From the sequence record NC_028894.1: DNA of 64,000 nucleotides; one strand, 5' to 3'. Of the stretch, positions 2,905 to 49,517 are shown piece by piece. The stretch is from Escherichia phage vB_EcoM_VR20. The notes under the pieces are model-generated. The model saw only the letters and a list, made by a program, of their open reading frames with translations, had not been told where the DNA came from and searched no databases. Each line of letters starts with the position of its first letter. The first letter of the stretch is position 1. A program made the position numbers and the translations under genes.

Positions 2905-3348
2905 TTAAATTTCAAATTCTTTGCGGAAGTTGGAAGCATAAGACTGAACTGATGCTTTGTTGAATCCAAACTCACGCACAATCATATCAATAACAGCTCT
3001 GCGAGCAGCACCGTTAGACATATTAACAGTTCTGAACATATCATAGCATAAATCTTTGTTGCTCATACCGGAGCGTTTAGGTGCCTTACGTTCAGCTTTT
3101 GGTTCAGCTTTAGGAGTAGGTTTAACTTCTGGTTTAACCTGTCCATCATTCAGACCTTTAAAAATTTTACCTGCCAGAGTTGCCAGTTTAGCAGCTTCGC
3201 CACGAGTGATACCAAATACTGCCGGGTTAAATGAAATACCTTCAGCTGTCAGACGTTTGAAGAACATACGTGCTGCGGATTGTGCTTCAGCTTCAGAAGA
3301 GTTGTTTAATGCCAGTTTAACATACTTAACCAGTTTTGAAGTTTTCAT
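2905..3348 (-). CDS. hypothetical early protein with C-terminal module shared with 3801..4226
   Basis: ATG at 3348; C-terminal ...NGAARRAVIDMIVREFGFNKASVQSYASNFRK matches ...NAARRALIDVLVTTHDIKKTVVQSYASNFRK of the neighbouring gene. Confidence 0.6.
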   Translation of the reverse strand: MKTSKLVKYVKLALNNSSEAEAQSAARMFFKRLTAEGISFNPAVFGITRGEAAKLATLAGKIFKGLNDGQVKPEVKPTPKAEPKAERKAPKRSGMSNKDLCYDMFRTVNMSNGAARRAVIDMIVREFGFNKASVQSYASNFRKEFEI

Positions 3349-3390
3349 TTTATTATCCCGTTTGTTTATTTGGTAACTCAGTATGGAATC

Positions 3391-3420
3391 ATTATGCCTT
3401 AGTTAAATTCCAAAGTACAT
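3391..3420 (-). promoter_or_regulatory. T4-type early promoter (cassette copy B)
   Basis: Minus-strand ATGTAC-18 nt-CATAAT; core GGTAACTCAGTATGGAATCATTATGCC (plus 3372..3398) is identical to copy A. Confidence 0.5.
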
Positions 3421-3421
3421 A

Positions 3422-3718
3422 TTAATTTTCAGAAGTTGGGAAATAAACTTCAAAGTCATACATGTTTACTACTGCAGTCGCGATTGCTTGGTACTGCATA
3501 CCCAAGAAAGTTTTCTTGTTCTTACGCCACAAGTTAACCATTTCTGTTTTGATGCATGCCAGGGAGTAGTTGGATGCAGGATACTGTTTGATGATTGCAA
3601 CAACTTCTTCAGAAGCAGTTTCGCACAATTCATTCAGTTGAGCTTCAATTTTAGCAGAAATGATTGCTTTGTTTTCTTCTTGAGCTTGGGTAGCGTGCCA
3701 TGCAGGTGCGTTGAACAT
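3422..3718 (-). CDS. hypothetical early protein
   Basis: ATG at 3718 preceded by AAACACTGGAGAATAAA leader and promoter copy C. Confidence 0.5.
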   Translation of the reverse strand: MFNAPAWHATQAQEENKAIISAKIEAQLNELCETASEEVVAIIKQYPASNYSLACIKTEMVNLWRKNKKTFLGMQYQAIATAVVNMYDFEVYFPTSEN

Positions 3719-3759
3719 TTTATTCTCCAGTGTTTTATTTGTTAACTCAGTATGGGATA

Positions 3760-3789
3760 ATTATACACTATCCCACCTGGAAGTAAAAC
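3760..3789 (-). promoter_or_regulatory. T4-type early promoter (cassette copy C) with -10 inside a hairpin loop
   Basis: Minus-strand GTTTTAC ... GTGTATAAT; the -10 lies in the loop of the 7-bp stem TGGGATA/TATCCCA (plus 3753..3775). Confidence 0.55.
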
Positions 3790-3800
3790 ACTTTTCTCAA

Positions 3801-4226
3801 TTATTTTTGAGCTTTGCGGAAGTTGGATGCATATGACTGAACAACAGTCTTTTTGATATCATGGGTGGTAACCAGAACATCAATCAGAGCGCGACGAGCT
3901 GCATTATCATTCATATCAATTTCTGCAAATGCCTGGAAGCAAATGTCACGAGCATTACCAGATTTGGACTGGATTTTTTCTTCTTTAACTTCTTCAATTG
4001 GGAATTCAATCATTTCAGCTTGGATTAATTCAATGATAGATTCTTTTGACTGTTTGGTGTTTACCTTCAGTTCAGAATTAAGGGACTTGGCGATGGCAAC
4101 AATCTGGGTTGAAGTCAGATGAATAAGTGCATCTTCACGAATGCAGATTTCACATACTTCGTCAGCAACCATTTTGTTGGTGATGCGGGTAACAGAAAAT
4201 GCAGAGGTCAGGGTCAGAAAGTTCAT
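3801..4226 (-). CDS. hypothetical early protein with C-terminal module shared with 2905..3348
   Basis: ATG at 4226 preceded by GGAGAAATAAA leader; the track start at 4307 is GTG lying inside the promoter cassette. Shared C-terminal motif VQSYASNFRK. Confidence 0.6.
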   Translation of the reverse strand: MNFLTLTSAFSVTRITNKMVADEVCEICIREDALIHLTSTQIVAIAKSLNSELKVNTKQSKESIIELIQAEMIEFPIEEVKEEKIQSKSGNARDICFQAFAEIDMNDNAARRALIDVLVTTHDIKKTVVQSYASNFRKAQK

Positions 4227-4277
4227 TTTATTTCTCCAAAGTTTTGTTTGATTCAGTGTGTAACTCAGTATGGAATC

Positions 4278-4307
4278 ATTATGCGCCGGGTCAATTCGGA
4301 TGTACAC
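4278..4307 (-). promoter_or_regulatory. T4-type early promoter (cassette copy D)
   Basis: Minus-strand AAAAGTAGTGTACA-17 nt-CATAAT, followed by the conserved ACTGAGTTAC core. Confidence 0.5.
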
Positions 4308-4343
4308 TACTTTTTGAAGAAAATTTCAAATTTATTCGGGGTA

Positions 4344-4366
4344 TAAAAAAGCCCGCAATGCGGGCT
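4344..4366 (-). terminator. intrinsic terminator (minus strand)
   Basis: Hairpin AGCCCGC-AAT-GCGGGCT followed on the minus strand by a U-run (plus-strand AAAAAA 4345..4350); sits just downstream of gene 4368..4922. Confidence 0.6.
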
Positions 4367-4367
4367 G

Positions 4368-4922
4368 TTAGTTCTTATAAAAGCGGAACGGATTTATATG
4401 AAAGGCGAGCATAGCCTTAGGGATGGGTCGGGACAGAAGGCTCTTGAGCTTCCAGCCACAATAAACACGCAGATAAAAGGTGATTCCACCGACCTTAAGA
4501 TAAGGAACAGAAGCAAAAACACCCCAGGCGTTGTCCGTCCACATCCAGAGCCATCCATGATGAGCTTTATCCGGGGAACCAGATTCGACATCAGGATTAC
4601 CTTTATAATGGAATTCTGAATTGCAATCACGACCGAGCTTGTGGTAAGCAAAATTGTATGCTTTGTTTCGCCAGAGCCAGGCTACTCGTTGGAAGTAAAC
4701 ACCTAACGGCCATTTTCTGATTTTTTCCCAGCGTTTAACATGACCACGGTCACCATCAATTGGATTATCGTATGTCATCATCCAGTCAAATCCGAACGGA
4801 AGCTTACCAGTCTTTTTGTTATGGAACGGCACTACAAATGGTGCAAGGATAACAGCCAGAATCATTGAAATGAAATCCAGTGGCACTAACAGAATCCAGC
4901 TTAGATATTTTAAAAGTTTCAT
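4368..4922 (-). CDS. membrane-anchored protein, Trp/aromatic-rich, unknown function
   Basis: ATG at 4922; N-terminal hydrophobic helix (LSWILLVPLDFISMILAVILAPFVV); terminator hairpins on both flanks. Confidence 0.55.
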   Translation of the reverse strand: MKLLKYLSWILLVPLDFISMILAVILAPFVVPFHNKKTGKLPFGFDWMMTYDNPIDGDRGHVKRWEKIRKWPLGVYFQRVAWLWRNKAYNFAYHKLGRDCNSEFHYKGNPDVESGSPDKAHHGWLWMWTDNAWGVFASVPYLKVGGITFYLRVYCGWKLKSLLSRPIPKAMLAFHINPFRFYKN

Positions 4923-4954
4923 AAATTTCCTTAGTTATGGGTACGTTATATTTA

Positions 4955-4984
4955 TAAAAAAGCCCCAACCTTTCGGAAGGGGCT
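4955..4984 (-). terminator. intrinsic terminator (minus strand)
   Basis: Hairpin AGCCCC...GGGGCT with inner CC-UUUC-GG, followed on the minus strand by a U-run (plus AAAAAA 4955..4960). Confidence 0.55.
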
Positions 4985-5032
4985 AAGCCTTGCGGCAACC
5001 TTGTCGGGGTTCCACCTGCTAGGCAAGTGTTC

Positions 5033-5416
5033 TTATCCGCGTGCGAATGCCATTGCAGCGCGTTCGTTGGCACGGTCAGTGATGTTCAAGAATTTATCAC
5101 GAGCGATTTCGATTGGAGCACCAACCCAGTCAGCAGCACCATTACCTGGGGACTGTTTAGGACGAACCATATAAGTTGAAACTTTGGAACCAGCTAGTTT
5201 AGCACCAGGTGCAGCGGCATTCTTAACGTCTTTAGCTTTGATACCAAAACCAGTTACGATGCCCCAAGAAACACCATTAACTGGTTTCTTGAACATAACA
5301 CGGTCGCCAATTGAAACACCCGCTTTTTCTGGAGCTACTAAAGAAAATTTACCGGCTTCAGTCAGCACGGATTCGGTGATGGTATTGCGATTTAAAAATT
5401 CTGCATATGTAAGCAT
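5033..5416 (-). CDS. hypothetical protein
   Basis: ATG at 5416, 127 aa; weak RBS; terminator downstream. Confidence 0.45.
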   Translation of the reverse strand: MLTYAEFLNRNTITESVLTEAGKFSLVAPEKAGVSIGDRVMFKKPVNGVSWGIVTGFGIKAKDVKNAAAPGAKLAGSKVSTYMVRPKQSPGNGAADWVGAPIEIARDKFLNITDRANERAAMAFARG

Positions 5417-5653
5417 TTTGTTTTTCCATTATTAGGGTTGTTGTTAATATTTATATTCCATAGTACCGGATGCACCATCCGCTCGGATTTCTCATACTAC
5501 CGGGCGCACCGCCCGCTCTGGAAAAACTCCATAAAAAGGTGCGCCGTTTCTGCTGTGATATAAGGGGACATCAACAAATCGTAAAGATTTATTAATGTCA
5601 GTCCTTAAACAGGGAACATCAGTCCGACGACTTACCGGTAGCGACCCGGTTTC

Positions 5654-39855: not shown

Positions 39856-41415
39856 ATGAAAAAGAATGCATTAGTTCAAAAATGGTCCGCTCTGTTGGAA
39901 AACGAAGCTCTTCCGGAAATCGTTGGTGCTTCTAAACAAGCTATCATCGCTAAAATCTTTGAAAACCAGGAACAAGATATCCTGACCGCTCCAGAATACC
40001 GTGACGAAAAAATCTCCGAAGCATTTGGTTCTTTCCTGACCGAAGCTGAAATCGGTGGTGACCATGGTTATGATGCTACCAATATCGCTGCTGGCCAGAC
40101 CTCTGGTGCAGTAACTCAGATTGGGCCGGCAGTTATGGGTATGGTTCGTCGTGCTATCCCGCATCTGATTGCGTTTGATATTTGTGGCGTACAGCCTCTG
40201 AACAACCCGACTGGCCAGGTATTTGCCCTGCGTGCAGTTTACGGTAAAGACCCTGTCGCTGCTGGTGCTAAAGAAGCTTTCCACCCGATGTATGCTCCGA
40301 ACGCTATGTTCTCCGGTCAGGGCGCCGCTGAAGCTTTCGAACCTCTGGCTGCAAGCAAGCTGCTCACCGTTGGTAAAATTTATTCTCACTTCTTCGAAGC
40401 AACCGGTTCTGCACACTACCAGGCTGTTGAAGCTGTAACCGTTGATGCTGGCGCTACTGATGCTGCTAAACTTGACGCTGAAGTTACCAAACTGCTCGAA
40501 GCTGGTAAGCTGGCAGAAATCGCTGAAGGTATGGCTACCTCTATCGCCGAACTGCAGGAAGGCTTCAACGGTTCTCAGGATAACCCGTGGAACGAAATGG
40601 GCTTCCGCATCGATAAACAAGTTATCGAAGCTAAATCCCGCCAGCTGAAAGCAAGCTACTCTATCGAACTGGCACAGGACCTGCGCGCTGTTCACGGTAT
40701 GGACGCTGATGCCGAATTGAGTGGTATTCTGGCTACCGAAATTATGCTGGAAATCAACCGCGAAGTTATCGATTGGATTAACTACTCCGCACAGGTTGGT
40801 AAATCTGGTATGACCAACACCGTTGGCGCTAAAGCTGGTGTGTTCGACTTCCAGGACCCGATTGATATCCGTGGCGCTCGTTGGGCTGGTGAAAGCTTTA
40901 AAGCTTTACTGTTCCAGATTGACAAAGAAGCTGCTGAAATCGCTCGTCAGACTGGCCGTGGTGCAGGTAACTTCATCATCGCTTCCCGTAACGTAGTTAA
41001 CGTACTGGCTGCAGTTGATACCTCCGTATCTTATGCTGCTCAGGGTCTGGGTAAAGGTTTCAACGTTGACACCACTAAAGCTGTGTTCGCTGGTGTTCTG
41101 GGTGGCAAATACCGTGTATACATCGACCAGTATGCTCGCGCAGATTACTTCACCATCGGTTACAAAGGCGCTAACGAAATGGATGCTGGTATCTACTACG
41201 CACCATATGTTGCACTGACCCCGCTGCGTGGCTCTGACCCGAAAAACTTCCAGCCGGTTATGGGCTTTAAAACCCGTTACGGTATCGGTATTAACCCGTT
41301 CGCTGACCCGACAGCTCAGGCTCCGACCAAGCGTATTCAAAACGGCATGCCGGACATCGTTAACAGCCTCGGCTTGAACGGTTACTTCCGCCGCGTATAT
41401 GTTAAAGGAATTTAA
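39856..41415 (+). CDS. 23: gp23, major capsid protein
   Basis: 519 aa; long stretches recognisable as T4 gp23 (LTEAEIGGDHGY..TNIAAGQTSGAVTQIGPAVMGMVRRAIP; FKTRYGIGINPFA...YFRRVYVKGI). Confidence 0.97.
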   Translation: MKKNALVQKWSALLENEALPEIVGASKQAIIAKIFENQEQDILTAPEYRDEKISEAFGSFLTEAEIGGDHGYDATNIAAGQTSGAVTQIGPAVMGMVRRAIPHLIAFDICGVQPLNNPTGQVFALRAVYGKDPVAAGAKEAFHPMYAPNAMFSGQGAAEAFEPLAASKLLTVGKIYSHFFEATGSAHYQAVEAVTVDAGATDAAKLDAEVTKLLEAGKLAEIAEGMATSIAELQEGFNGSQDNPWNEMGFRIDKQVIEAKSRQLKASYSIELAQDLRAVHGMDADAELSGILATEIMLEINREVIDWINYSAQVGKSGMTNTVGAKAGVFDFQDPIDIRGARWAGESFKALLFQIDKEAAEIARQTGRGAGNFIIASRNVVNVLAAVDTSVSYAAQGLGKGFNVDTTKAVFAGVLGGKYRVYIDQYARADYFTIGYKGANEMDAGIYYAPYVALTPLRGSDPKNFQPVMGFKTRYGIGINPFADPTAQAPTKRIQNGMPDIVNSLGLNGYFRRVYVKGI

Positions 41416-41438
41416 TCTTAGATTAAGTTAAATAAAAA

Positions 41439-41466
41439 GGGACCCTTGAGGTCCCTTTCTTGTTTT
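41439..41466. terminator. bidirectional intrinsic terminator between gene 23 and the inserted minus-strand gene
   Basis: GGGACC-CUUGA-GGUCCC with TTTCTTGTTTT on the plus side and AAAAA upstream (U-run on the minus strand). Confidence 0.75.
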
Positions 41467-41747
41467 CATACCATACCATTTAAATGAACTTCTACCCGGC
41501 GCTTGATGAGGTCTCTGAAATTAACACTGTTCTCTTGAAGTTTCAACCAGGTACCTGATTTGTCTTTGGTGTGAGTAGAATAATTACCATTCCACCAAAA
41601 ATCAGTATCATATGCTAAGTTTTCATATTTTTTAACTAGTTTGTTCAGAGCATTACCATTAACACCATTTGGGTATTTGTTGACCAATGCAACAACTTCA
41701 ATTTCCAGATTTTTAAAGGTATTCCGAAGGAAAGATACTTTGTTCAT
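41466..41747 (-). CDS. small early-type hypothetical protein inserted between genes 23 and 24
   Basis: ATG at 41747 preceded by the conserved leader (GGAG-TCTAAA-ATG) and promoter cassette copy E; the track start 41759 lies inside the leader. Confidence 0.55.
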   Translation of the reverse strand: MNKVSFLRNTFKNLEIEVVALVNKYPNGVNGNALNKLVKKYENLAYDTDFWWNGNYSTHTKDKSGTWLKLQENSVNFRDLIKRRVEVHLNGMV

Positions 41748-41783
41748 TTTAGACTCCATTGTTTGGTAACTCAGTATGAAATC

Positions 41784-41813
41784 ATTATGTCTTATCTTAA
41801 TCAGGTTGTAAAC
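41784..41813 (-). promoter_or_regulatory. T4-type early promoter (cassette copy E): -35 GTTTAC, -10 CATAAT
   Basis: Minus-strand AAAAGTTGTTTACA-17 nt-CATAAT followed by the ACTGAGTTACC core seen in copies A-D. Confidence 0.55.
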
Positions 41814-41819
41814 AACTTT

Positions 41820-41827
41820 TATAAATA
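41820..41827 (+). promoter_or_regulatory. late promoter TATAAATA (gene 24)
   Basis: Exact TATAAATA 27 nt upstream of the gene 24 ATG. Confidence 0.7.
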
Positions 41828-41853
41828 AAGTATATCACAAAAGGAAAGCGCAA

Positions 41854-43134
41854 ATGGCAAAGATTAACAAATTACTGCGCGAGTCAACTACCACTACCAG
41901 CAACTCCTTGGGCCGCCCGAATCTTGTTGCTTTGACCCGTGCTACAACCAAATTGATTTACCGCGATATCATCGCTGAACAACGTACTAACCAGCCAGTT
42001 GCGGCTCTGTACGGTGTTAAATATCTTACTCCTGATAATGAATTCAGTTTCCAGACTGGTGCTACTTATGGTGGTGAAGTTGGTTCAAAAGACCGTACAA
42101 CTATTCCGGAATTTACAACCCCAACTCAGGCCGTAGCTAAAGGTGGATACATTAAATTCCAGAATATCGTTTATAAAGCTCTGGTTGATAATCCATTTGC
42201 ATCGACCACAGAAACAGTATTATCTGATGTTCTACAGGAAGGTCTTGTTGCATTAACTATTCGTTTAGTTCCTGATGCTGCACACACCGAAAAATTTGAA
42301 GCTGGTGATGTTGAAATTAGTAACGCTGTATTCCAGGTTAATAAATGGAATGCTCCTGTTAAATCCCGTAAATTGAAAACTGCATTAACTGTTGAGCTTG
42401 CTCAGGATATGGAAGCAAATGGCTTTAATGCTCCTGCGTTCCTGGAAGACCTGCTTGCTACTATTATGGCAGATGAAATTAACAAGGATGTTCTTCAGTC
42501 TCTTATTACCGTTTCCAAGCGTTATAAAGTAACTGGCGTTTCTGACAATGGCACCATCGATTTAACATATGATGCAGCTCCAGAAGGTGCACGTAAACTG
42601 TACGAACTGGTTTGCGAAATGAACTCCGAAATTCAGAAAACTACATCTTATTCCGGTACCTTTGTTGTTGCCTCCAGCCGTGTTGCTGCTATGTTGGCTG
42701 GTTCTGGCTGGCTGAAGCATAAACCTGAAGACGAACAGTGGCTTCCTGAAACAGCGTACGGTTATTTGATTAATGGTCTTCCTGTATTCTGTGATGTTAA
42801 CAGTCCATTGGATTATGTAACCGTTGGCGTTAAAGAAAATTACGGTGGAAACGAAGTCGTAGGCTCAATCTTCTATGCTCCTTATACCGAAGGCCTGGAC
42901 TTAGATGATGAAGAACACGTAGGTGCGTTTAAGGTCATTGTGGACCCAGACAGCTTGCAGCCATCTATCTCCCTGATGGTTCGATATGCGCTTTCAGCTA
43001 ACCCTTACACCGTTGCTAAAGACGACAAAGAAGCTCGTATTATCGATGCAACTAATATGGATTTAATGGCCGGCCAGAGCAATATGTCTTATCTGCTCGG
43101 TGTTAAACTTCCGCCAATCATTTATGAGGCGTAA
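41854..43134 (+). CDS. 24: gp24, head vertex protein (copy 1)
   Basis: 426 aa, gp23-fold vertex protein by size and position after gene 23. Confidence 0.9.
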   Translation: MAKINKLLRESTTTTSNSLGRPNLVALTRATTKLIYRDIIAEQRTNQPVAALYGVKYLTPDNEFSFQTGATYGGEVGSKDRTTIPEFTTPTQAVAKGGYIKFQNIVYKALVDNPFASTTETVLSDVLQEGLVALTIRLVPDAAHTEKFEAGDVEISNAVFQVNKWNAPVKSRKLKTALTVELAQDMEANGFNAPAFLEDLLATIMADEINKDVLQSLITVSKRYKVTGVSDNGTIDLTYDAAPEGARKLYELVCEMNSEIQKTTSYSGTFVVASSRVAAMLAGSGWLKHKPEDEQWLPETAYGYLINGLPVFCDVNSPLDYVTVGVKENYGGNEVVGSIFYAPYTEGLDLDDEEHVGAFKVIVDPDSLQPSISLMVRYALSANPYTVAKDDKEARIIDATNMDLMAGQSNMSYLLGVKLPPIIYEA

Positions 43135-44418
43135 ATGCAAAAGATTAACGCACTAATTCACGAATCAACATTAACGGCGGCCAACCAGGTCGCCCGTCCT
43201 AATTTGCTTTCTTATACTCAGGCCACGAATAAACGAATTTTTAAAGCACTCGTGGCCGAACAGAAAACTACTCAGCCAGTTGCAGCGTTGTATGGTGTTC
43301 GTGTTCTGAACCCAGATGATAAAATGACATATCTTGGTGGAGCAACGTTTGCGGGTCAAATTGGTATGTTCGAGCGTAAGAATATTCCAGAATTTACAAA
43401 CAAAGACGAAGCTTATGCAGTCGGCGATATGTTCCAGTTTGAAAGTGTTGTGTTCAAAGTTTTGGAAGCATCACCATTCGCCGGGACTCTTGAAACTGAT
43501 TTGGGTGAAGTTATTTCTGAAGCCATTGCTGCTGGCCATATAAGAATGATGTCGGATGCGGCTTTCACTGATAAATTTGAACAAGGTCATCCTGAAATTG
43601 CTGAAGCCGGTTTCCGTATTGATAAATGGCAGACCGAAGTCAAATCCAGAAAGCTGAAAACTTCTTTAACGGTCGAGCTTGCACAGGACCTGGAAGCAAA
43701 CGGTTTCGATGCAACAGACTTCATTGATAATATTCTCGGTATTCAGATGGCAGAGGAAATTAATAAGGATGTACTGCAATCCCTTATTACTGTCAGTTCT
43801 CGCTTCAAGGTGCAAGGTGTTTCTGAAAAAGGTGTATTGAATCTAACTGACCCGAAATATGATAACGCTCAGGACCGTGCGCGAACCCTGTATTATTATA
43901 TGTGTGAAATGAACTCCGCAGTTCAACGTCAGACTTCGTTTGCTGGTACATATGCAGTCGCTTCTTCCCGGTGTGCAGCTATTTTAGCAGCTTCTGGTTG
44001 GGTTGAGAAAAAGGAAGACCAGGATGAATTAGCCTATGGCGTTCTGAAGAACGGTTTACCACTTTATGCAGATATGAATAGTCCATGTGATTATGTTATT
44101 GTTGGTGTAAATGCTGATATGGGTGAAGGTCAGACGGTCGCATCTTTGTATTATGCGCCTTATACGGAAGGACTTAGTGAAGTTGATGATGAGGGTGATA
44201 CCTCGGTCGGGGAATTCAAGGTTATTGTTGACCCTGAAAGCTTGCAGCCTACTGTTGCGCTATTAGCTCGTTATGCATTGACAGCGAACCCTTATACGGT
44301 TGCGAAAGATGATAAAGAAGCTCGCATTATTGATGGTGCTGATATGGATAAGATGGCCAACCAAAGCCAATTGAGTTCTTATCTTGGTGTTAAACTTCCA
44401 CCACTGGAAAAAGAATAA
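43135..44418 (+). CDS. 24: gp24 paralog, head vertex protein (copy 2)
   Basis: 427 aa; clear similarity to copy 1 along the whole length (RPNL...QPVAALYGV...; C-terminal GVKLPP); starts 1 nt after the copy 1 stop. Confidence 0.85.
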   Translation: MQKINALIHESTLTAANQVARPNLLSYTQATNKRIFKALVAEQKTTQPVAALYGVRVLNPDDKMTYLGGATFAGQIGMFERKNIPEFTNKDEAYAVGDMFQFESVVFKVLEASPFAGTLETDLGEVISEAIAAGHIRMMSDAAFTDKFEQGHPEIAEAGFRIDKWQTEVKSRKLKTSLTVELAQDLEANGFDATDFIDNILGIQMAEEINKDVLQSLITVSSRFKVQGVSEKGVLNLTDPKYDNAQDRARTLYYYMCEMNSAVQRQTSFAGTYAVASSRCAAILAASGWVEKKEDQDELAYGVLKNGLPLYADMNSPCDYVIVGVNADMGEGQTVASLYYAPYTEGLSEVDDEGDTSVGEFKVIVDPESLQPTVALLARYALTANPYTVAKDDKEARIIDGADMDKMANQSQLSSYLGVKLPPLEKE

Positions 44419-44438
44419 GGGCCTTGCGGCCCTTTTTT
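44419..44438 (+). terminator. intrinsic terminator after the gene 24 paralog
   Basis: GGGCC-UUGC-GGCCC followed by TTTTTT. Confidence 0.8.
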
Positions 44439-45444
44439 ATTCACTAATTAATGCAATCCAAACATGTCTTAATGTTTCTCTTACATTTGCGATGAGTTGC
44501 TTTTTAACTTCAACAGGATTTTCCGTCAGAGTCAATTCAAGGCCTTCGCGACCGGCTTCTTCCAGAATATCTTGGACCGTTAGCCCCATTACCTTTCCAA
44601 AATCCTTCGGTGATACTTCACCAATCTTACTGATAACATTATTGATGCGGTTAACAGTCACATAATCAGTGAAATTCCACAGTAAATCCATATCATTTTG
44701 GCTCAGAACCACTGCAGCCTTAATAGGCTTATCAGACTTTTTCTTTTCACTGAATTTAGAGTTCTTACATTTAATCGCTACGCGCTCGCCGTTAGGTAAC
44801 CATGCAGGAACATCAGGTTTTAATACAAATCCTTCAGCAGTGAATACTTTACCTTCCACCTTTGCATCAAAATCAGTGGTATTTGCTGTAGTCAAACCCG
44901 CGTTATCCACTGTAAAATTGTAATCAGGGACAACAGAATCCAGGTCATTAGGGAGCTTAATTAATTCTTCAAAACTACCTGTAGCCAGGCGCGGCGCAAC
45001 CTTAAACTTATGGATAATACAGAATGCTTCCATAAGGGTGTCAGTCAGGACAGATTCAGTCCCATCTTCTTTAGTAACGCGGATATCAAATACATAAAAA
45101 TCTTTATCACCGTAATCCACATTCTTCTGGATACCTGCCCCGGCAAACTCACCATAAATCTGGTATGCCTGGTAATTAATATCCTGCAAAAGTTTCTGCA
45201 CAGATTTAATAGAATCTGCATAGTTCTTTAATACAATTTCATAACCATAGAAATCTTCTGCAGGCAGGATAGGTCCAGTGCGTTTCGCACATGTCACATT
45301 GTCTTGTTCAATGATTAATGAAAAGTTGGTACCATGAATCTTCTCGCGAGCTACCCATTCACCGCTGGTGAAGCCTTGCAGGCGAATCTTTTCAATGAAC
45401 TTGTTGTTATAGTGATTTTCAAGGCTGTTGTATTTCTTAAACAT
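44437..45444 (-). CDS. rnlB: RNA ligase 2 (Rnl2)
   Basis: 335 aa; N-terminus [13 protein letters not shown]...[14 protein letters not shown] (ligase motif I KxHG) recognisable as T4 Rnl2. Confidence 0.9.
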
Positions 45445-46154: not shown

Positions 46155-47288
46155 TTAATAAACGTAATCGTATATAATACCAGCTTCTAAAGCGGTGCGA
46201 TGAATAATTCGACCATTACGAGATTCTTGTACATCAACCTCTGGATAGTCGGTAATCATTTTTTGAAGGGTATATCGGTGCAAATAATACGGGCTATCTG
46301 GAGCATCAGTTTTCCAGTCTTGCCCAGCAAGAGTCATTTTCTGAATTTCGTCCATAACCCACCAACCACACCAGATATAAGCTGAATTACGAACTGGCAG
46401 CGGATGAACGTAAGGTAGTTCACCCTCTGGTTCAGGTGCGACTTTAGCGGTGACTGTTACATTACCAGTTTTTGTTACCGTCACTGGGTTATAATCAGTC
46501 GCCGAAACCACAACAGAAACTTCAATAACCTGTGAACCTTCGGCGCTTGTATCGATTACCAGAGTATCCGTGGTGCCATCTACAGGAGAACCATCTTTCT
46601 TCCAAGAATAAGCAAAAGTAGCTCCACTCGGCGCGCCGACTACATCCGCTTTAAAAGAAGCTGGAGTACCTTCAGAGACAGTAATAGAAGCAGGCGTTAA
46701 AGTAACAGAAACACCCGACATAGTTTTCTTAACAAACGTTACCTCAGCTCCTTTAGTTGCGGTGCCATTATTATAATCGGGTGCAGAAACAGTAACTTCG
46801 CAGTTCAATGTATAATTTGCTTCTGCTGATTCGGTAACAGTAATAGTTTCACCAGTTTGACCTGGGATTACGCTAGTGTTACGTTTCCAAACATAAGCAA
46901 TTGTTGCACCAGAAGGAGCACCTGTCACGTTAGCAGTAACAACTTGAGATTGCCCTATTTCTTTAGTAACAGAGGCCGGGTCTAAAGTCAGCGTGATTGC
47001 CGGCATTGTTTTATTCTGGATAGTTAAAGTTGTTTCAGCTTCAGCAGTTTCCGGTTCCCCGTCTGCCGGAGTGGTGGTTGCAACAACTTTAATAGTCTTA
47101 CTGCCTGCTGGACCAACAGCGACATAATCCATTGCAGCAGTCACAGAAGATTGAGGAACGCCATCAACGGTCCAGACAAATGATTCGGTACCTTCAGCTG
47201 CAGCGCCAGCGCCGGTTGCAGTGAAATTGGTTGTTGCTCCAATAACGGCCGTAGCCGCCAAAGGAGCAATAGTTACGGTATAAGCCAT
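46155..47288 (-). CDS. hoc: Hoc, highly immunogenic outer capsid protein
   Basis: 377 aa; repeated Ig-like modules and conserved C-terminus (PEPEGELPYVHPLP...IWCGWWVMDEIQKMT...YYLHRYTLQKM). Confidence 0.9.
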   Translation of the reverse strand: MAYTVTIAPLAATAVIGATTNFTATGAGAAAEGTESFVWTVDGVPQSSVTAAMDYVAVGPAGSKTIKVVATTTPADGEPETAEAETTLTIQNKTMPAITLTLDPASVTKEIGQSQVVTANVTGAPSGATIAYVWKRNTSVIPGQTGETITVTESAEANYTLNCEVTVSAPDYNNGTATKGAEVTFVKKTMSGVSVTLTPASITVSEGTPASFKADVVGAPSGATFAYSWKKDGSPVDGTTDTLVIDTSAEGSQVIEVSVVVSATDYNPVTVTKTGNVTVTAKVAPEPEGELPYVHPLPVRNSAYIWCGWWVMDEIQKMTLAGQDWKTDAPDSPYYLHRYTLQKMITDYPEVDVQESRNGRIIHRTALEAGIIYDYVY

Positions 47289-47963: not shown

Positions 47964-47981
47964 GATGAACCTCGGTTAGTG

Positions 47982-47989
47982 TATAAATA
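47982..47989 (+). promoter_or_regulatory. late promoter TATAAATA (uvsW)
   Basis: Exact TATAAATA 29 nt upstream of the uvsW ATG. Confidence 0.65.
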
Positions 47990-48017
47990 TAGATATATTT
48001 ATTACCTTGGAATCATC

Positions 48018-49517
48018 ATGGATATTAAAATCAACTTTCTAAATTTTAGTCACGTGCATGTTGAATGTGAAGATGGAATCTTCTACGAACTCCGTGATTA
48101 CTTCAGCTTCGAAGCTGAAAACTATCGCTTCAATCCAAAGTTCAAGCAGGGAGTTTGGGACGGACGAATCCGCCTCCTGGATTACAATCGTAAATTACCA
48201 TACGGTTTGGTTAATCAAATTAAAAAGTTCGCTGACCAGTTTGGTTATTCATTCTGGATTGACCCGCAAATCACCGAGAAAGAAGAAATCTCTCGCGAAG
48301 AATTCGACAAATGGGTCGAGTCAAAAGAAATCTATTCAGGCAATACCAAGATAACGCCCCATTGGTATCAATCTGACGCCGTATATGATGGTCTGGTCAA
48401 CAGAAGAAAGATTCTGAACTTACCTACGTCTGCGGGTAAAAGCCTCATCCAGGCGCTTCTGGCGCGATATTATCTCGAGAACTATGAAGGCAAGGTTCTT
48501 ATCCTTGTTCCTACAACTGCCCTTGTCGACCAGATGATTAATGACTTTGTTGATTATCGGCTTTTCCCTCGTGCAGCTTGTCTGGGTATTCGTTCCGGGA
48601 CTAAACGCGATTCTGATGCGATGATTTATGTATCGACTTATCAGACGGCTGTAAAACAACCTAAAGAATGGTTTGAACAGTTTGGCCAGTTTATGAATGA
48701 CGAATGCCACATGGCTACAGGTAAATCGATTTCGACGGTTATCGAAGGCCTTACGAATTGCATGTTTAAATTTGGTTTGTCAGGTTCACTCCGTGATGGC
48801 AAAGCCAACCTTATGCAATATATGGGTCTGTTTGGTGATATCTTTAAACCAGTATCAACATCTAAATTAATGGAAGATGGCCAGGTTACTGACCTTAAAA
48901 TAAATAGTATTTTCCTTCGTTACCCTGACGAATTCACCGTTAAAATGAAAGGTAAAACTTATCAGGATGAAATCAAGGTAATTACAAAAGCTACACGCAG
49001 AAATAAATGGGTAACAAACCTTGCACTCAAGCTTTCTAAAAAAGATGAAAACGTCTTTTTGATGTTTAAGAATATCGAGCATGGTAAATCGATGTTTGAA
49101 ATGATTAAAGAAGCTGGTCATGAGAAAGTGTATTATGTTTCCGGGGAAGTTGATACCGAAACCCGTAATGCTCTGAAGGTCATGGCAGAGAATGGAAAGG
49201 GAATTATTGTTGTAGCTTCATATGGTGTATTCTCAACGGGGATTTCCGTTAAAAACCTCCATCATATTATTTTCGCTCACCCGGTCAAGTCAAAGGTAAT
49301 TGTACTCCAGACAATTGGCCGCGTGCTTCGAAAACATGAATCCAAATCGACCGCAAACGTGTGGGACATTGTGGATGATATGGGGGTCAAACCCAAATCA
49401 GCAAACGCTAAAAAGAAATATGTTCATATTAACTTTGCGCTTAAACATGCACTAGAACGTATTCAGCGGTATGCAGACGAAAAATTCAATTATGTAATTA
49501 AACAGGTGGAAATATAA
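48018..49517 (+). CDS. uvsW: UvsW, recombination/repair helicase
   Basis: ATG at 48018 (MDIKINF...), downstream of the late promoter; helicase motifs (NLPTSAGKS, DECH, QTIGRVLR). Confidence 0.93.
   Translation: MDIKINFLNFSHVHVECEDGIFYELRDYFSFEAENYRFNPKFKQGVWDGRIRLLDYNRKLPYGLVNQIKKFADQFGYSFWIDPQITEKEEISREEFDKWVESKEIYSGNTKITPHWYQSDAVYDGLVNRRKILNLPTSAGKSLIQALLARYYLENYEGKVLILVPTTALVDQMINDFVDYRLFPRAACLGIRSGTKRDSDAMIYVSTYQTAVKQPKEWFEQFGQFMNDECHMATGKSISTVIEGLTNCMFKFGLSGSLRDGKANLMQYMGLFGDIFKPVSTSKLMEDGQVTDLKINSIFLRYPDEFTVKMKGKTYQDEIKVITKATRRNKWVTNLALKLSKKDENVFLMFKNIEHGKSMFEMIKEAGHEKVYYVSGEVDTETRNALKVMAENGKGIIVVASYGVFSTGISVKNLHHIIFAHPVKSKVIVLQTIGRVLRKHESKSTANVWDIVDDMGVKPKSANAKKKYVHINFALKHALERIQRYADEKFNYVIKQVEI

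Follow-up and report, generated by a model that had tools for sequence, protein, structure and literature searches.

An ancient pair of gene 24 paralogs in Escherichia phage vB_EcoM_VR20, the second of which may encode a minor, specialized capsid vertex protein

Escherichia phage vB_EcoM_VR20 (VR20) carries two adjacent genes of the gene 24 (capsid vertex protein) family at the position where phage T4 has one. We analyzed this pair in a 64,000-nucleotide (nt) stretch of sequence record NC_028894.1 (the whole stretch is referred to here as the window). The first gene, copy 1 (41854..43134, plus strand), encodes 426 amino acids (aa) and is the canonical gp24 ortholog, presumed to be the major vertex protein. 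The second, copy 2 (43135..44418, plus strand), encodes 427 aa and is a deep-branching gp24 paralog, presumed to be a minor or specialized vertex protein. We regard it as close to certain that the two genes both belong to the gp24 family and form an ancient, coinherited pair of paralogs. For the account as a whole, in which an ancient pair supplies a main vertex protein (copy 1) and a minor, specialized one (copy 2), we estimate a probability of roughly 0.55.

The observation from which the analysis started, that of two abutting, full-length, intact genes of the gp24 family, is confirmed. Copies 1 and 2 were aligned by BLASTP over their full length with 242 identities in 428 positions (57%; 75% positives; E = 8e-176), which together with the map of open reading frames (ORFs) bears out the initial annotation of two neighboring paralogous genes of 426 and 427 aa. 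Copy 2 starts right after copy 1 stops, as had been described; there is no gap between the TAA of copy 1 (43132-43134) and the ATG of copy 2 (at 43135). The terminator reported after copy 2 was likewise found, as a G+C-rich hairpin followed by a T-run at 44417-44434. Among the sequence motifs quoted as shared, RPNL, QPVAALYGV, ANPYTVAKDDKEARIID, and GVKLPP are present in both copies, but the ending ...IIDG occurs only in copy 2, and copy 1 has ...IIDA instead. The contrast drawn with T4 also stands: the RB14 locus has one gene at the same position, and Tequatrovirus records were matched at one place each.

The surroundings of the pair follow the head-gene order of T4. Genes g20, g67, g68, g21, g22, and g23 are followed by a small minus-strand ORF and the gene 24 pair; rnlB, 24.2, 24.3, hoc, and inh (minus strand) and then uvsW lie downstream. 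The same order is annotated in RB14, VR7, and JS98. Positioned between g23 and the convergent rnlB, the pair occupies the slot of T4 gene 24.

Both copies are full-length homologs of the T4 gp24-type capsid vertex protein, with a predicted HK97-like fold and insertion domain. Each matched the Pfam family PF07068 (Gp23 family) over profile positions 3-376 of 376, with almost the same score (327.2 bits for copy 1 and 327.6 bits for copy 2; gathering cutoff, 24.4). Copy 2 also matched phrog_138 (E = 2e-123) and the T4 gp24 crystal structure 1YUE_A (E = 2.1e-148; query residues 1-424 on chain residues 1-423), and its matches to the gp24 chains of 1YUE, 5VF3, and 8GMO had E values of about 1e-145 to 1e-148 (residues 1-424). 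Identity to the gp24 of RB14 (T4 type) over about 424 aa was 70.3% for copy 1 and 55.5% for copy 2, and identity of both copies to gp23, from which gp24 arose by duplication (PMC9958956; PMC10580926), was 28 to 30%. The architecture of both is of the gp24 type, at about 427 aa with a short, 10-residue propeptide and without the long N-terminal propeptide of gp23. T4 gp24 loses its first 10 residues to the prohead protease (PMC9546572), and by analogy with T4, both copies are predicted to be cleaved after Glu10. The N terminus of copy 1 (MAKINKLLRE/STTT, with the slash at the predicted cleavage site) aligns with that of the T4-type protein (MAKINELLRE/STTT), placing the putative site for the gp21 protease at codons 8 to 10 (L-R-E; 41875..41883, plus strand). 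In copy 2 (MQKINALIHE/S), the putative site is formed by codons 8 to 10 (I-H-E; 43156..43164, plus strand) within a conserved I-x-E-S pattern. Copy-2 N termini read LIHES, LIQES, LIKES, LIYES, or LIRES in the window, VR7, JS98, dhabil, MY742, R3_1, IT22, L026, and L032, and the (L/I)-x-E motif is kept in all seven copy-1 and all nine copy-2 sequences.

The age of the pair was evaluated with neighbor-joining trees on Kimura distances, for which gp24 genes were taken from 18 annotated loci, with IMG/VR loci added later. The copy-2 sequences, which came from seven phages in at least five genera (the window, VR7, JS98, dhabil, MY742, R3_1, and IT22), formed a clade with 100% support. The corresponding copy-1 clade, without IT22, received 99.5 to 100% support in full-length trees. 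The main branching order was the same in both clades (IT22, then R3_1, then MY742, and then the Dhakavirus/Gaprivervirus group). The two genes have therefore been inherited or moved as a unit. The copies were never each other's closest relatives: they were sisters in 0 of 300 bootstraps and, with added taxa, in 0 of 200 bootstraps whether the tree was built from full-length sequences, N halves, or C halves. The identity of copy 1 to T4-type gp24 (70%) exceeds its identity to copy 2 (57%). Expressed as distances, copy 1 stands at 0.45 from the single-copy Tevenvirinae gp24s, well below the mean copy-1 to copy-2 distance of 0.67, which is about the distance between Tevenvirinae gp24 and the gp24 of Acinetobacter phages (0.63 to 0.68).

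A phylogeny of gene 24 across relatives had been suggested as a means of dating the duplication, and it places the split deep in the past rather than within one lineage. The term "tandem duplication" in the initial annotation is correct in that intact paralogs stand in tandem where T4 has one gene, but no duplication took place within the lineage of VR20. As a label for an ancient pair of paralogs, the term is misleading, since it suggests a local event.

Three other histories were tried and rejected. A burst of substitution in copy 2 after duplication is ruled out by the equal distances of far outgroups from the two copies (mean distances to copy 1/copy 2 of 0.965/0.991 for RB43, 0.981/0.971 for FL15, and 0.723/0.722 for L038); on the same grounds, the deep position of copy 2 is not a rate artifact. 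Gene conversion or concerted evolution is ruled out by the reciprocally monophyletic clades, a constant nucleotide identity of 61 to 62% between the copies in all seven genomes, and the lack of any identical run of more than 26 nt (the longest runs were 11 to 26 nt). Even across the conserved ANPYTVAKDDKEARIID motif, the copies differ by 8 synonymous changes in 51 nt. Such divergence leaves little substrate for deletion of one copy by homologous recombination. Capture of copy 2 from a Jiaodavirus- or Tegunavirus-like gp24 was considered because copy 2 shares a few residues with these proteins and has a best identity of 64% outside the copy-2 group; it is not supported, as the grouping received bootstrap values of only 6 to 28% (0% for the insertion domain alone).

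Both genes are highly likely to be functional, as judged from their pattern of substitution. We estimated ratios of nonsynonymous to synonymous substitution (dN/dS, or ω) by the Nei-Gojobori method, using the comparison between the window and VR7, in which the synonymous distance (dS) is unsaturated. The ω value was 0.066 for copy 1 (dS, 0.33) and 0.023 for copy 2 (dS, 0.37), and even in the most distant comparison (Roskildevirus) it did not exceed about 0.18. Both copies are thus under strong purifying selection. The initial annotation had named inactivating changes in relatives as evidence that would count against two working vertex proteins. A tblastn search, limited to copy-2-type matches, instead returned the copy-2-type gene as one uninterrupted match in each of 112 records (112/112), with at least 80% coverage (99 to 100% among the 60 matches listed). 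No copy-2 remnants were seen in eight single-copy loci, including the 578-nt gap of Pet-CM3-4. A decaying or redundant duplicate is ruled out by the low ω of both copies, the 112 of 112 intact genes, and the lack of remnants.

The 112 phage records fall into at least six groups and include phages of Escherichia, Salmonella (STML-198, Melville, and STP4-a), Enterobacter, and Kosakonia, as well as the Klebsiella genus Marfavirus. The pair is also present in Erwinia phage IT22 (Roskildevirus). A search with copy 1 matched 1,492 places in 1,375 records, which corresponds to about 117 records (8.5%) with two gene 24 copies; about 1,260 of the 1,375 are single copy. Positions 41400-44700 of the window matched 89 phage records by megablast, the best being Escherichia phage P896 (95.7%), with VR7, the Gaprivervirus type, at 92%. 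VR20 is a Gaprivervirus-type phage, and its copies 1 and 2 are 95.5% and 98.8% identical to the VR7 proteins 24(1) and 24(2).

The pair is therefore already known, having long been annotated in more than 100 genomes of several Tevenvirinae genera, and is no discovery in itself. It is labeled 24(1)/24(2) in VR7, 24a/24b in JS98, "capsid vertex protein I/II" in VR25, VR26, and CJ20, and "head vertex protein I/II" in Salmonella phage CGG4-1. Papers on JS98 from 2004 and 2007 (J. Bacteriol.) reportedly mention a gene 24 duplication, but the pair goes unmentioned in the Petrov 2010 review. Our literature searches for two-gene-24 phages returned no discussion of the role of the second copy and no virion proteomics, genetics, or structure, and the gp24 structures in the PDB are from T4 only, with none from a two-copy phage.

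Annotation of the second gene varies among records. In Klebsiella phage R3_1, copy 2 (extracted locus 4272-5540) is listed as a hypothetical protein of 400 aa, with its start placed at 4338; if translation is begun instead at an ATG farther upstream, which overlaps the copy-1 stop (ATGA), the canonical copy-2 N terminus, MKIDRLIHEST, is restored. The copy 2 of dhabil (extracted locus 3001-4281) is labeled "capsid vertex protein I," and PHROG-based records (e.g., MY742) name both copies "major head protein."

Close relatives of VR20 carry a different solution in the same slot. In Shigella phage SP18 (Gaprivervirus), one divergent gene 24 (extracted locus 3501-4781, against 41851-44445 of the window) stands in place of the whole pair. 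Measured over 100-nt windows, its flanks share 91 to 100% identity with VR20 as far as 41850 on one side and from 44446 on the other, and the gene itself has 60 to 77% DNA identity to copy 1. The SP18-type protein is 70% identical to copy 1 and 53% identical to copy 2. This allele was found in 19 records of Gaprivervirus and Dhakavirus-like genomes, including P479, DK-13, RZ, MX01, AnYang, and KIT01. In the full-length tree, it was placed with the copy-1 clade, but only weakly (70% bootstrap). An origin by recombinational collapse of the pair, or as a chimera of its members, is ruled out by the uniform DNA identity to copy 1 together with copy-1 states. Beyond this group, the sampled Karamviruses (Pet-CM3-4 and VIPECLUMC02) are single copy and related Enterobacter phages have the pair, and the two-copy phages were not monophyletic in the gp23 tree. 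Either copy 2 would have been lost many times or the cassette would move between lineages. Because close relatives swap the pair for one gene, a nearly identical gp23 capsid (distance, 0.022) can apparently be closed with either cassette, and the pair as a unit appears to be functionally exchangeable with a single gene 24. A role in head size was considered and rejected, since one- and two-copy Gaprivervirus/Dhakavirus-type genomes all measure about 166 to 173 kb.

The signals around the pair suggest how it is expressed. A match to the T4-type late promoter consensus TATAAATA lies at 41820..41827 (plus strand), 26 nt upstream of the copy-1 ATG. It is the sole plus-strand instance between 39715 and 45464, and no TATAAATA was found within or between the gene 24 copies; the window as a whole has 22 matches, against 4.7 expected. 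Copy 1 is preceded by a Shine-Dalgarno-like AGGA (41842..41845, plus strand) 8 nt before its start codon. The Shine-Dalgarno sequence of copy 2, GAGG (43126..43129, plus strand), precedes the copy-2 ATG by 5 nt and is thus contained in the final codons of copy 1. The copy-1/copy-2 junction is tight in all relatives inspected, ranging from a 4-nt overlap to a 1-nt spacer, and copy 2 is likely to be translationally coupled to copy 1. Upstream, a terminator-like hairpin after gene 23 (41436..41458, plus strand; 9-bp stem with 5 G-C pairs and a T-rich tail), for which the minus strand also scores (41460-41434), is predicted to separate the end of the gene 23 transcript from the gene 24 unit. Downstream, the bidirectional intrinsic terminator AAGGGCCTTGCGGCCCTT TTTTAT (44417..44434; both strands score) consists of a 7-bp stem with 5 G-C pairs, a 4-nt loop, and a T-run. 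It overlaps the stop codon of copy 2 and also serves the convergent rnlB (44437..45444, minus strand). The single late promoter, the flanking terminators, the GAGG inside copy 1, and the abutting stop and start codons together point to one late bicistronic unit with likely coupling.

Within this unit, the two copies have diverged asymmetrically. We counted a site as copy-2 derived when at least seven of eight single-copy Tevenvirinae gp24s shared the copy-1 residue and none shared the copy-2 residue. Of 25 fixed differences between the clades, including those at T4 residues 34 (L/R), 57 (Y/V), 204 (T/I), 244 (P/Q), and 415 (L/Y), 14 were copy-2 derived, and none was copy-1 derived by the mirror criterion. 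Copy 1 keeps the ancestral residue at all 14 polarized sites, and the SP18 gene 24 has the copy-1 state at all 14 as well. At sites 25, 26, 32, 36, and 56, the copy-2 residue is also present in two of four outgroups (RB43 and FL15 at 26, 32, and 56), which suggests that copy 2 is an old lineage rather than a recent derivative.

The positions of the changes are informative. Ten of the 14 copy-2-derived sites lie within T4 residues 8-72. In T4 gp24, residues 11-20 contact the neighboring hexamer, residues 26-29 form a β-interaction with an I-domain linker of the gp24* subunit next to them in the pentamer, and disordered stretches of linker 1 fall within about residues 60-81 (PMC9546572). The fixed changes in copy 2 cluster in T4 residues 25-36 and 56-72, that is, both partners of the intrapentamer contact between the N terminus and the I-domain linker, and because both partners have changed, a coadapted copy-2 self-interface is suggested. 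In the alignment, 126 columns are invariant across all 26 gp24 sequences, and much of the stretch beyond T4 residue 160 is among them. Conservation is lowest, in both copies, in the insertion (I) domain (T4 residues about 71-143; window about 42064-42280 and 43345-43561), where within-clade identity is 0.54 to 0.77, compared with 0.8 to 0.95 for much of the remainder. Alone, the I domain has too little signal to recover either clade; its variability hints at diversifying pressure on the exposed protrusion of the vertex.

Two further asymmetries concern expression and linkage. Codon adaptation relative to gp23 was 0.41 to 0.48 for copy 1 and 0.35 to 0.40 for copy 2, with the same sign in all seven pairs, and rare codons numbered 2 to 11 in copy 1 and 12 to 20 in copy 2. 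In all loci inspected (15 from IMG/VR and 6 from GenBank), the copy-2-type gene stood directly after a copy-1-type gene.

We propose the following account. From the late promoter, copy 1, the translationally coupled copy 2, and the terminator would be read as one late bicistronic message. Copy 1 probably supplies most of the vertex subunits. Copy 2, presumably made in smaller amounts, would enter the prohead, be cleaved there, and be built into the mature head, as its conserved cleavage motif and the constraint along its whole length suggest; we consider it likely that copy 2 is a virion component. The positions of its substitutions further suggest that copy 2 may tend to assemble into pentamers of its own, which would occupy some of the 11 nonportal vertices, rather than to mix randomly with copy 1, a step that we put forward only tentatively and regard as open to doubt. 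Heterogeneous or specialized vertices, as proposed in the initial annotation, are a plausible outcome and agree with several of these indirect signs.

Several points weigh against this account. The substitutions were mapped to contacts by alignment to T4 numbering and not on a structure of the VR20 proteins, and protein levels can be judged only roughly from codon adaptation. The branching point of copy 2 is weakly placed in the neighbor-joining trees, with about 50% support for its most basal position. A gp23 at a distance of 0.022 works with a single gene 24, so that a second vertex protein is not geometrically required, and T4 can bypass gp24 altogether (PMC10580926; PMC9958956). T4 has 11 symmetry-independent gp24* subunits, which are reported to resemble one another (PMC9546572); from this, no structural need for vertex classes is obvious. 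No proteomic, genetic, or structural study placing copy 2 in virions was found in the literature.

A more specific arrangement would assign the paralogs to geometrically distinct classes of vertices, with copy 2 restricted, for example, to the apical vertex opposite the portal or to one ring of five. This is compatible with the fixed, one-sided substitutions in contact regions and with three further traits of copy 2, namely, poorer codon adaptation, a strict reliance on copy 1, and very strong conservation; we nevertheless hold it to be somewhat improbable. If both copies instead coassembled in the same vertices, either randomly or in a preferred ratio, the 11 vertices would be equivalent and chemically heterogeneous. 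Cotranscription and translational coupling would provide both proteins at the same time and place, and the 126 invariant columns indicate that the core packing surfaces could be compatible. Mixed pentamers are nonetheless unlikely in our judgment, given that copy 2 has changed in both partners of the intrapentamer contact (T4 residues 25-36 and 56-72), which is the pattern of a coadapted self-interface, and that a 5-fold ring has no regular pattern for two types of subunit.

The exchange of cassettes among close relatives bears on another possibility, that either protein can fill all the vertices and that the two serve as conditional alternates, making the phage robust to changes of host or of conditions (such as temperature, pH, host proteases, or a host defense that recognizes or blocks one of the two versions). 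A one-gene allele does replace the pair in SP18-type Gaprivervirus/Dhakavirus-like phages with nearly identical gp23, T4 gp24 adds to the resistance of the capsid to acid, proteases, and heat (PMC10580926), and in both copies, variability is greatest in the surface-located I domain (T4 residues 71-143). Were copy 2 self-sufficient, however, its failure to occur without copy 1 in any inspected locus would be unexpected; the locus scan showed no separate promoter or regulatory element by which the copies could be switched, and the consistent asymmetry in codon usage suggests fixed, unequal roles. We thus consider alternates of this kind an unlikely explanation as well.

Alternatively, copy 2 might not be a shell subunit at all, acting as an assembly or maturation factor (e.g., in timing the activation of the prohead protease) or as a decoy that titrates a host factor. 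Attachment of T4 gp24 to the prohead vertices is thought to trigger gp21 activation (PMC9958956), and copy 2 is seemingly made in lower amounts. Purifying selection acts along the entire 427 aa of the HK97-type fold, the A and P domain regions and the C terminus among them, which fits a lattice subunit better than a factor for which part of the fold would suffice, and the conserved I-x-E-S pattern implies that copy 2 meets the protease within the prohead; a nonshell role is very unlikely. Finally, a recent lineage-specific tandem duplication with one redundant copy drifting to loss, as the adjacency, shared orientation, and near-equal length of the genes and the single gene 24 of some relatives might suggest, is already refuted by the divergence of the copies (57% protein and 62% DNA identity, with saturated dS between them), by the closer relationship of copy 1 to T4 gp24 than to copy 2 (sisters in 0/300 bootstraps), by ω values of 0.02 to 0.07 in both copies with 112/112 copy-2-type genes intact, and by single-copy loci that lack copy-2 remnants, the SP18 gene being a foreign allele and not the survivor of a pair.

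Several features near the pair were also recorded. The minus-strand ORF between g23 and copy 1 (41466..41759; 97 aa) matched phrog_6003 (unknown function; E = 6e-49) and had no Pfam match. It is conserved in VR7 (ORF190c), JS98 (orf173), and SP18; in KARL-1 and TG1, its slot holds a homing endonuclease of about 500 aa. The EAWsc9 record has a feature labeled "glycosyl hydrolase family 25" under the matched region, possibly this ORF, and the label is doubtful. The hoc region is very variable among close relatives. The hoc gene of the window (46155..47288, minus strand) encodes 377 aa, and the Hoc proteins of SP18 and JS98 are about 283 aa. In VR7 and dhabil, this region instead holds a large plus-strand gene and, after it, a Hoc-like gene; the large gene encodes a collagen-repeat "tail fiber protein" in VR7 and a 501-aa hypothetical protein in dhabil. 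For uvsW (47979..49517), the mechanically called ORF begins at a GTG with a 13-residue leader (VYKYRYIYYLGII) before MDIKINF. A TATAAATA match at 47982-47989 falls within this leader, and the true uvsW start is probably the internal ATG near 48018.

The T4 head is a leading model of capsid assembly and also serves as a platform for display and delivery. If copy 2 does mark particular corners, the pair would show how the quasi-equivalent vertices of a prolate capsid are told apart in assembly and would provide vertex-specific attachment points. Vertex classes, if real, would amount to a T4-type capsid with chemically differentiated corners, a breaking of symmetry that is not described for any T4-type head. 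Nearly identical phages that carry either the two-gene cassette or the one-gene allele offer a natural comparison for the part of the second protein in stability or host adaptation.

The pair can be compared with known systems at several levels. The closest are the annotated pairs of JS98 (Dhakavirus), of VR7, VR25, and VR26 (Gaprivervirus), and of CGG4-1 and other S16-like Salmonella phages, which represent the same feature as that in the window; Marfavirus (Klebsiella phages F48 and Marfa), the Enterobacter and Kosakonia phages, and Roskildevirus (Erwinia phage IT22) have the same gene 24 pair. Gene order, the abutting junction, the lengths of 426 and 427 aa, the late-operon position, and the flanking g23 and rnlB all match, without substantive difference, and the window represents a further Gaprivervirus-type isolate. 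The SP18-type allele occupies the same slot as the pair, but it is one gene and a different allele, not a collapsed pair. T4 gp24 (PDB 1YUE, 5VF3, 7VS5, and 8GMO) and the VR20 copies are of the same family and predicted fold and share the genomic slot and the 10-residue propeptide motif; T4 and most of its relatives have one gene 24, whereas the window has a second, deep-branching paralog after the first. Lastly, the hexamer and pentamer roles of gp23 and gp24 are demonstrated, whereas a positional difference between the two gene 24 copies is a proposal from sequence. The older gp23/gp24 split in T4-type phages followed a like principle, in that a capsid paralog was kept for a distinct position in the shell.

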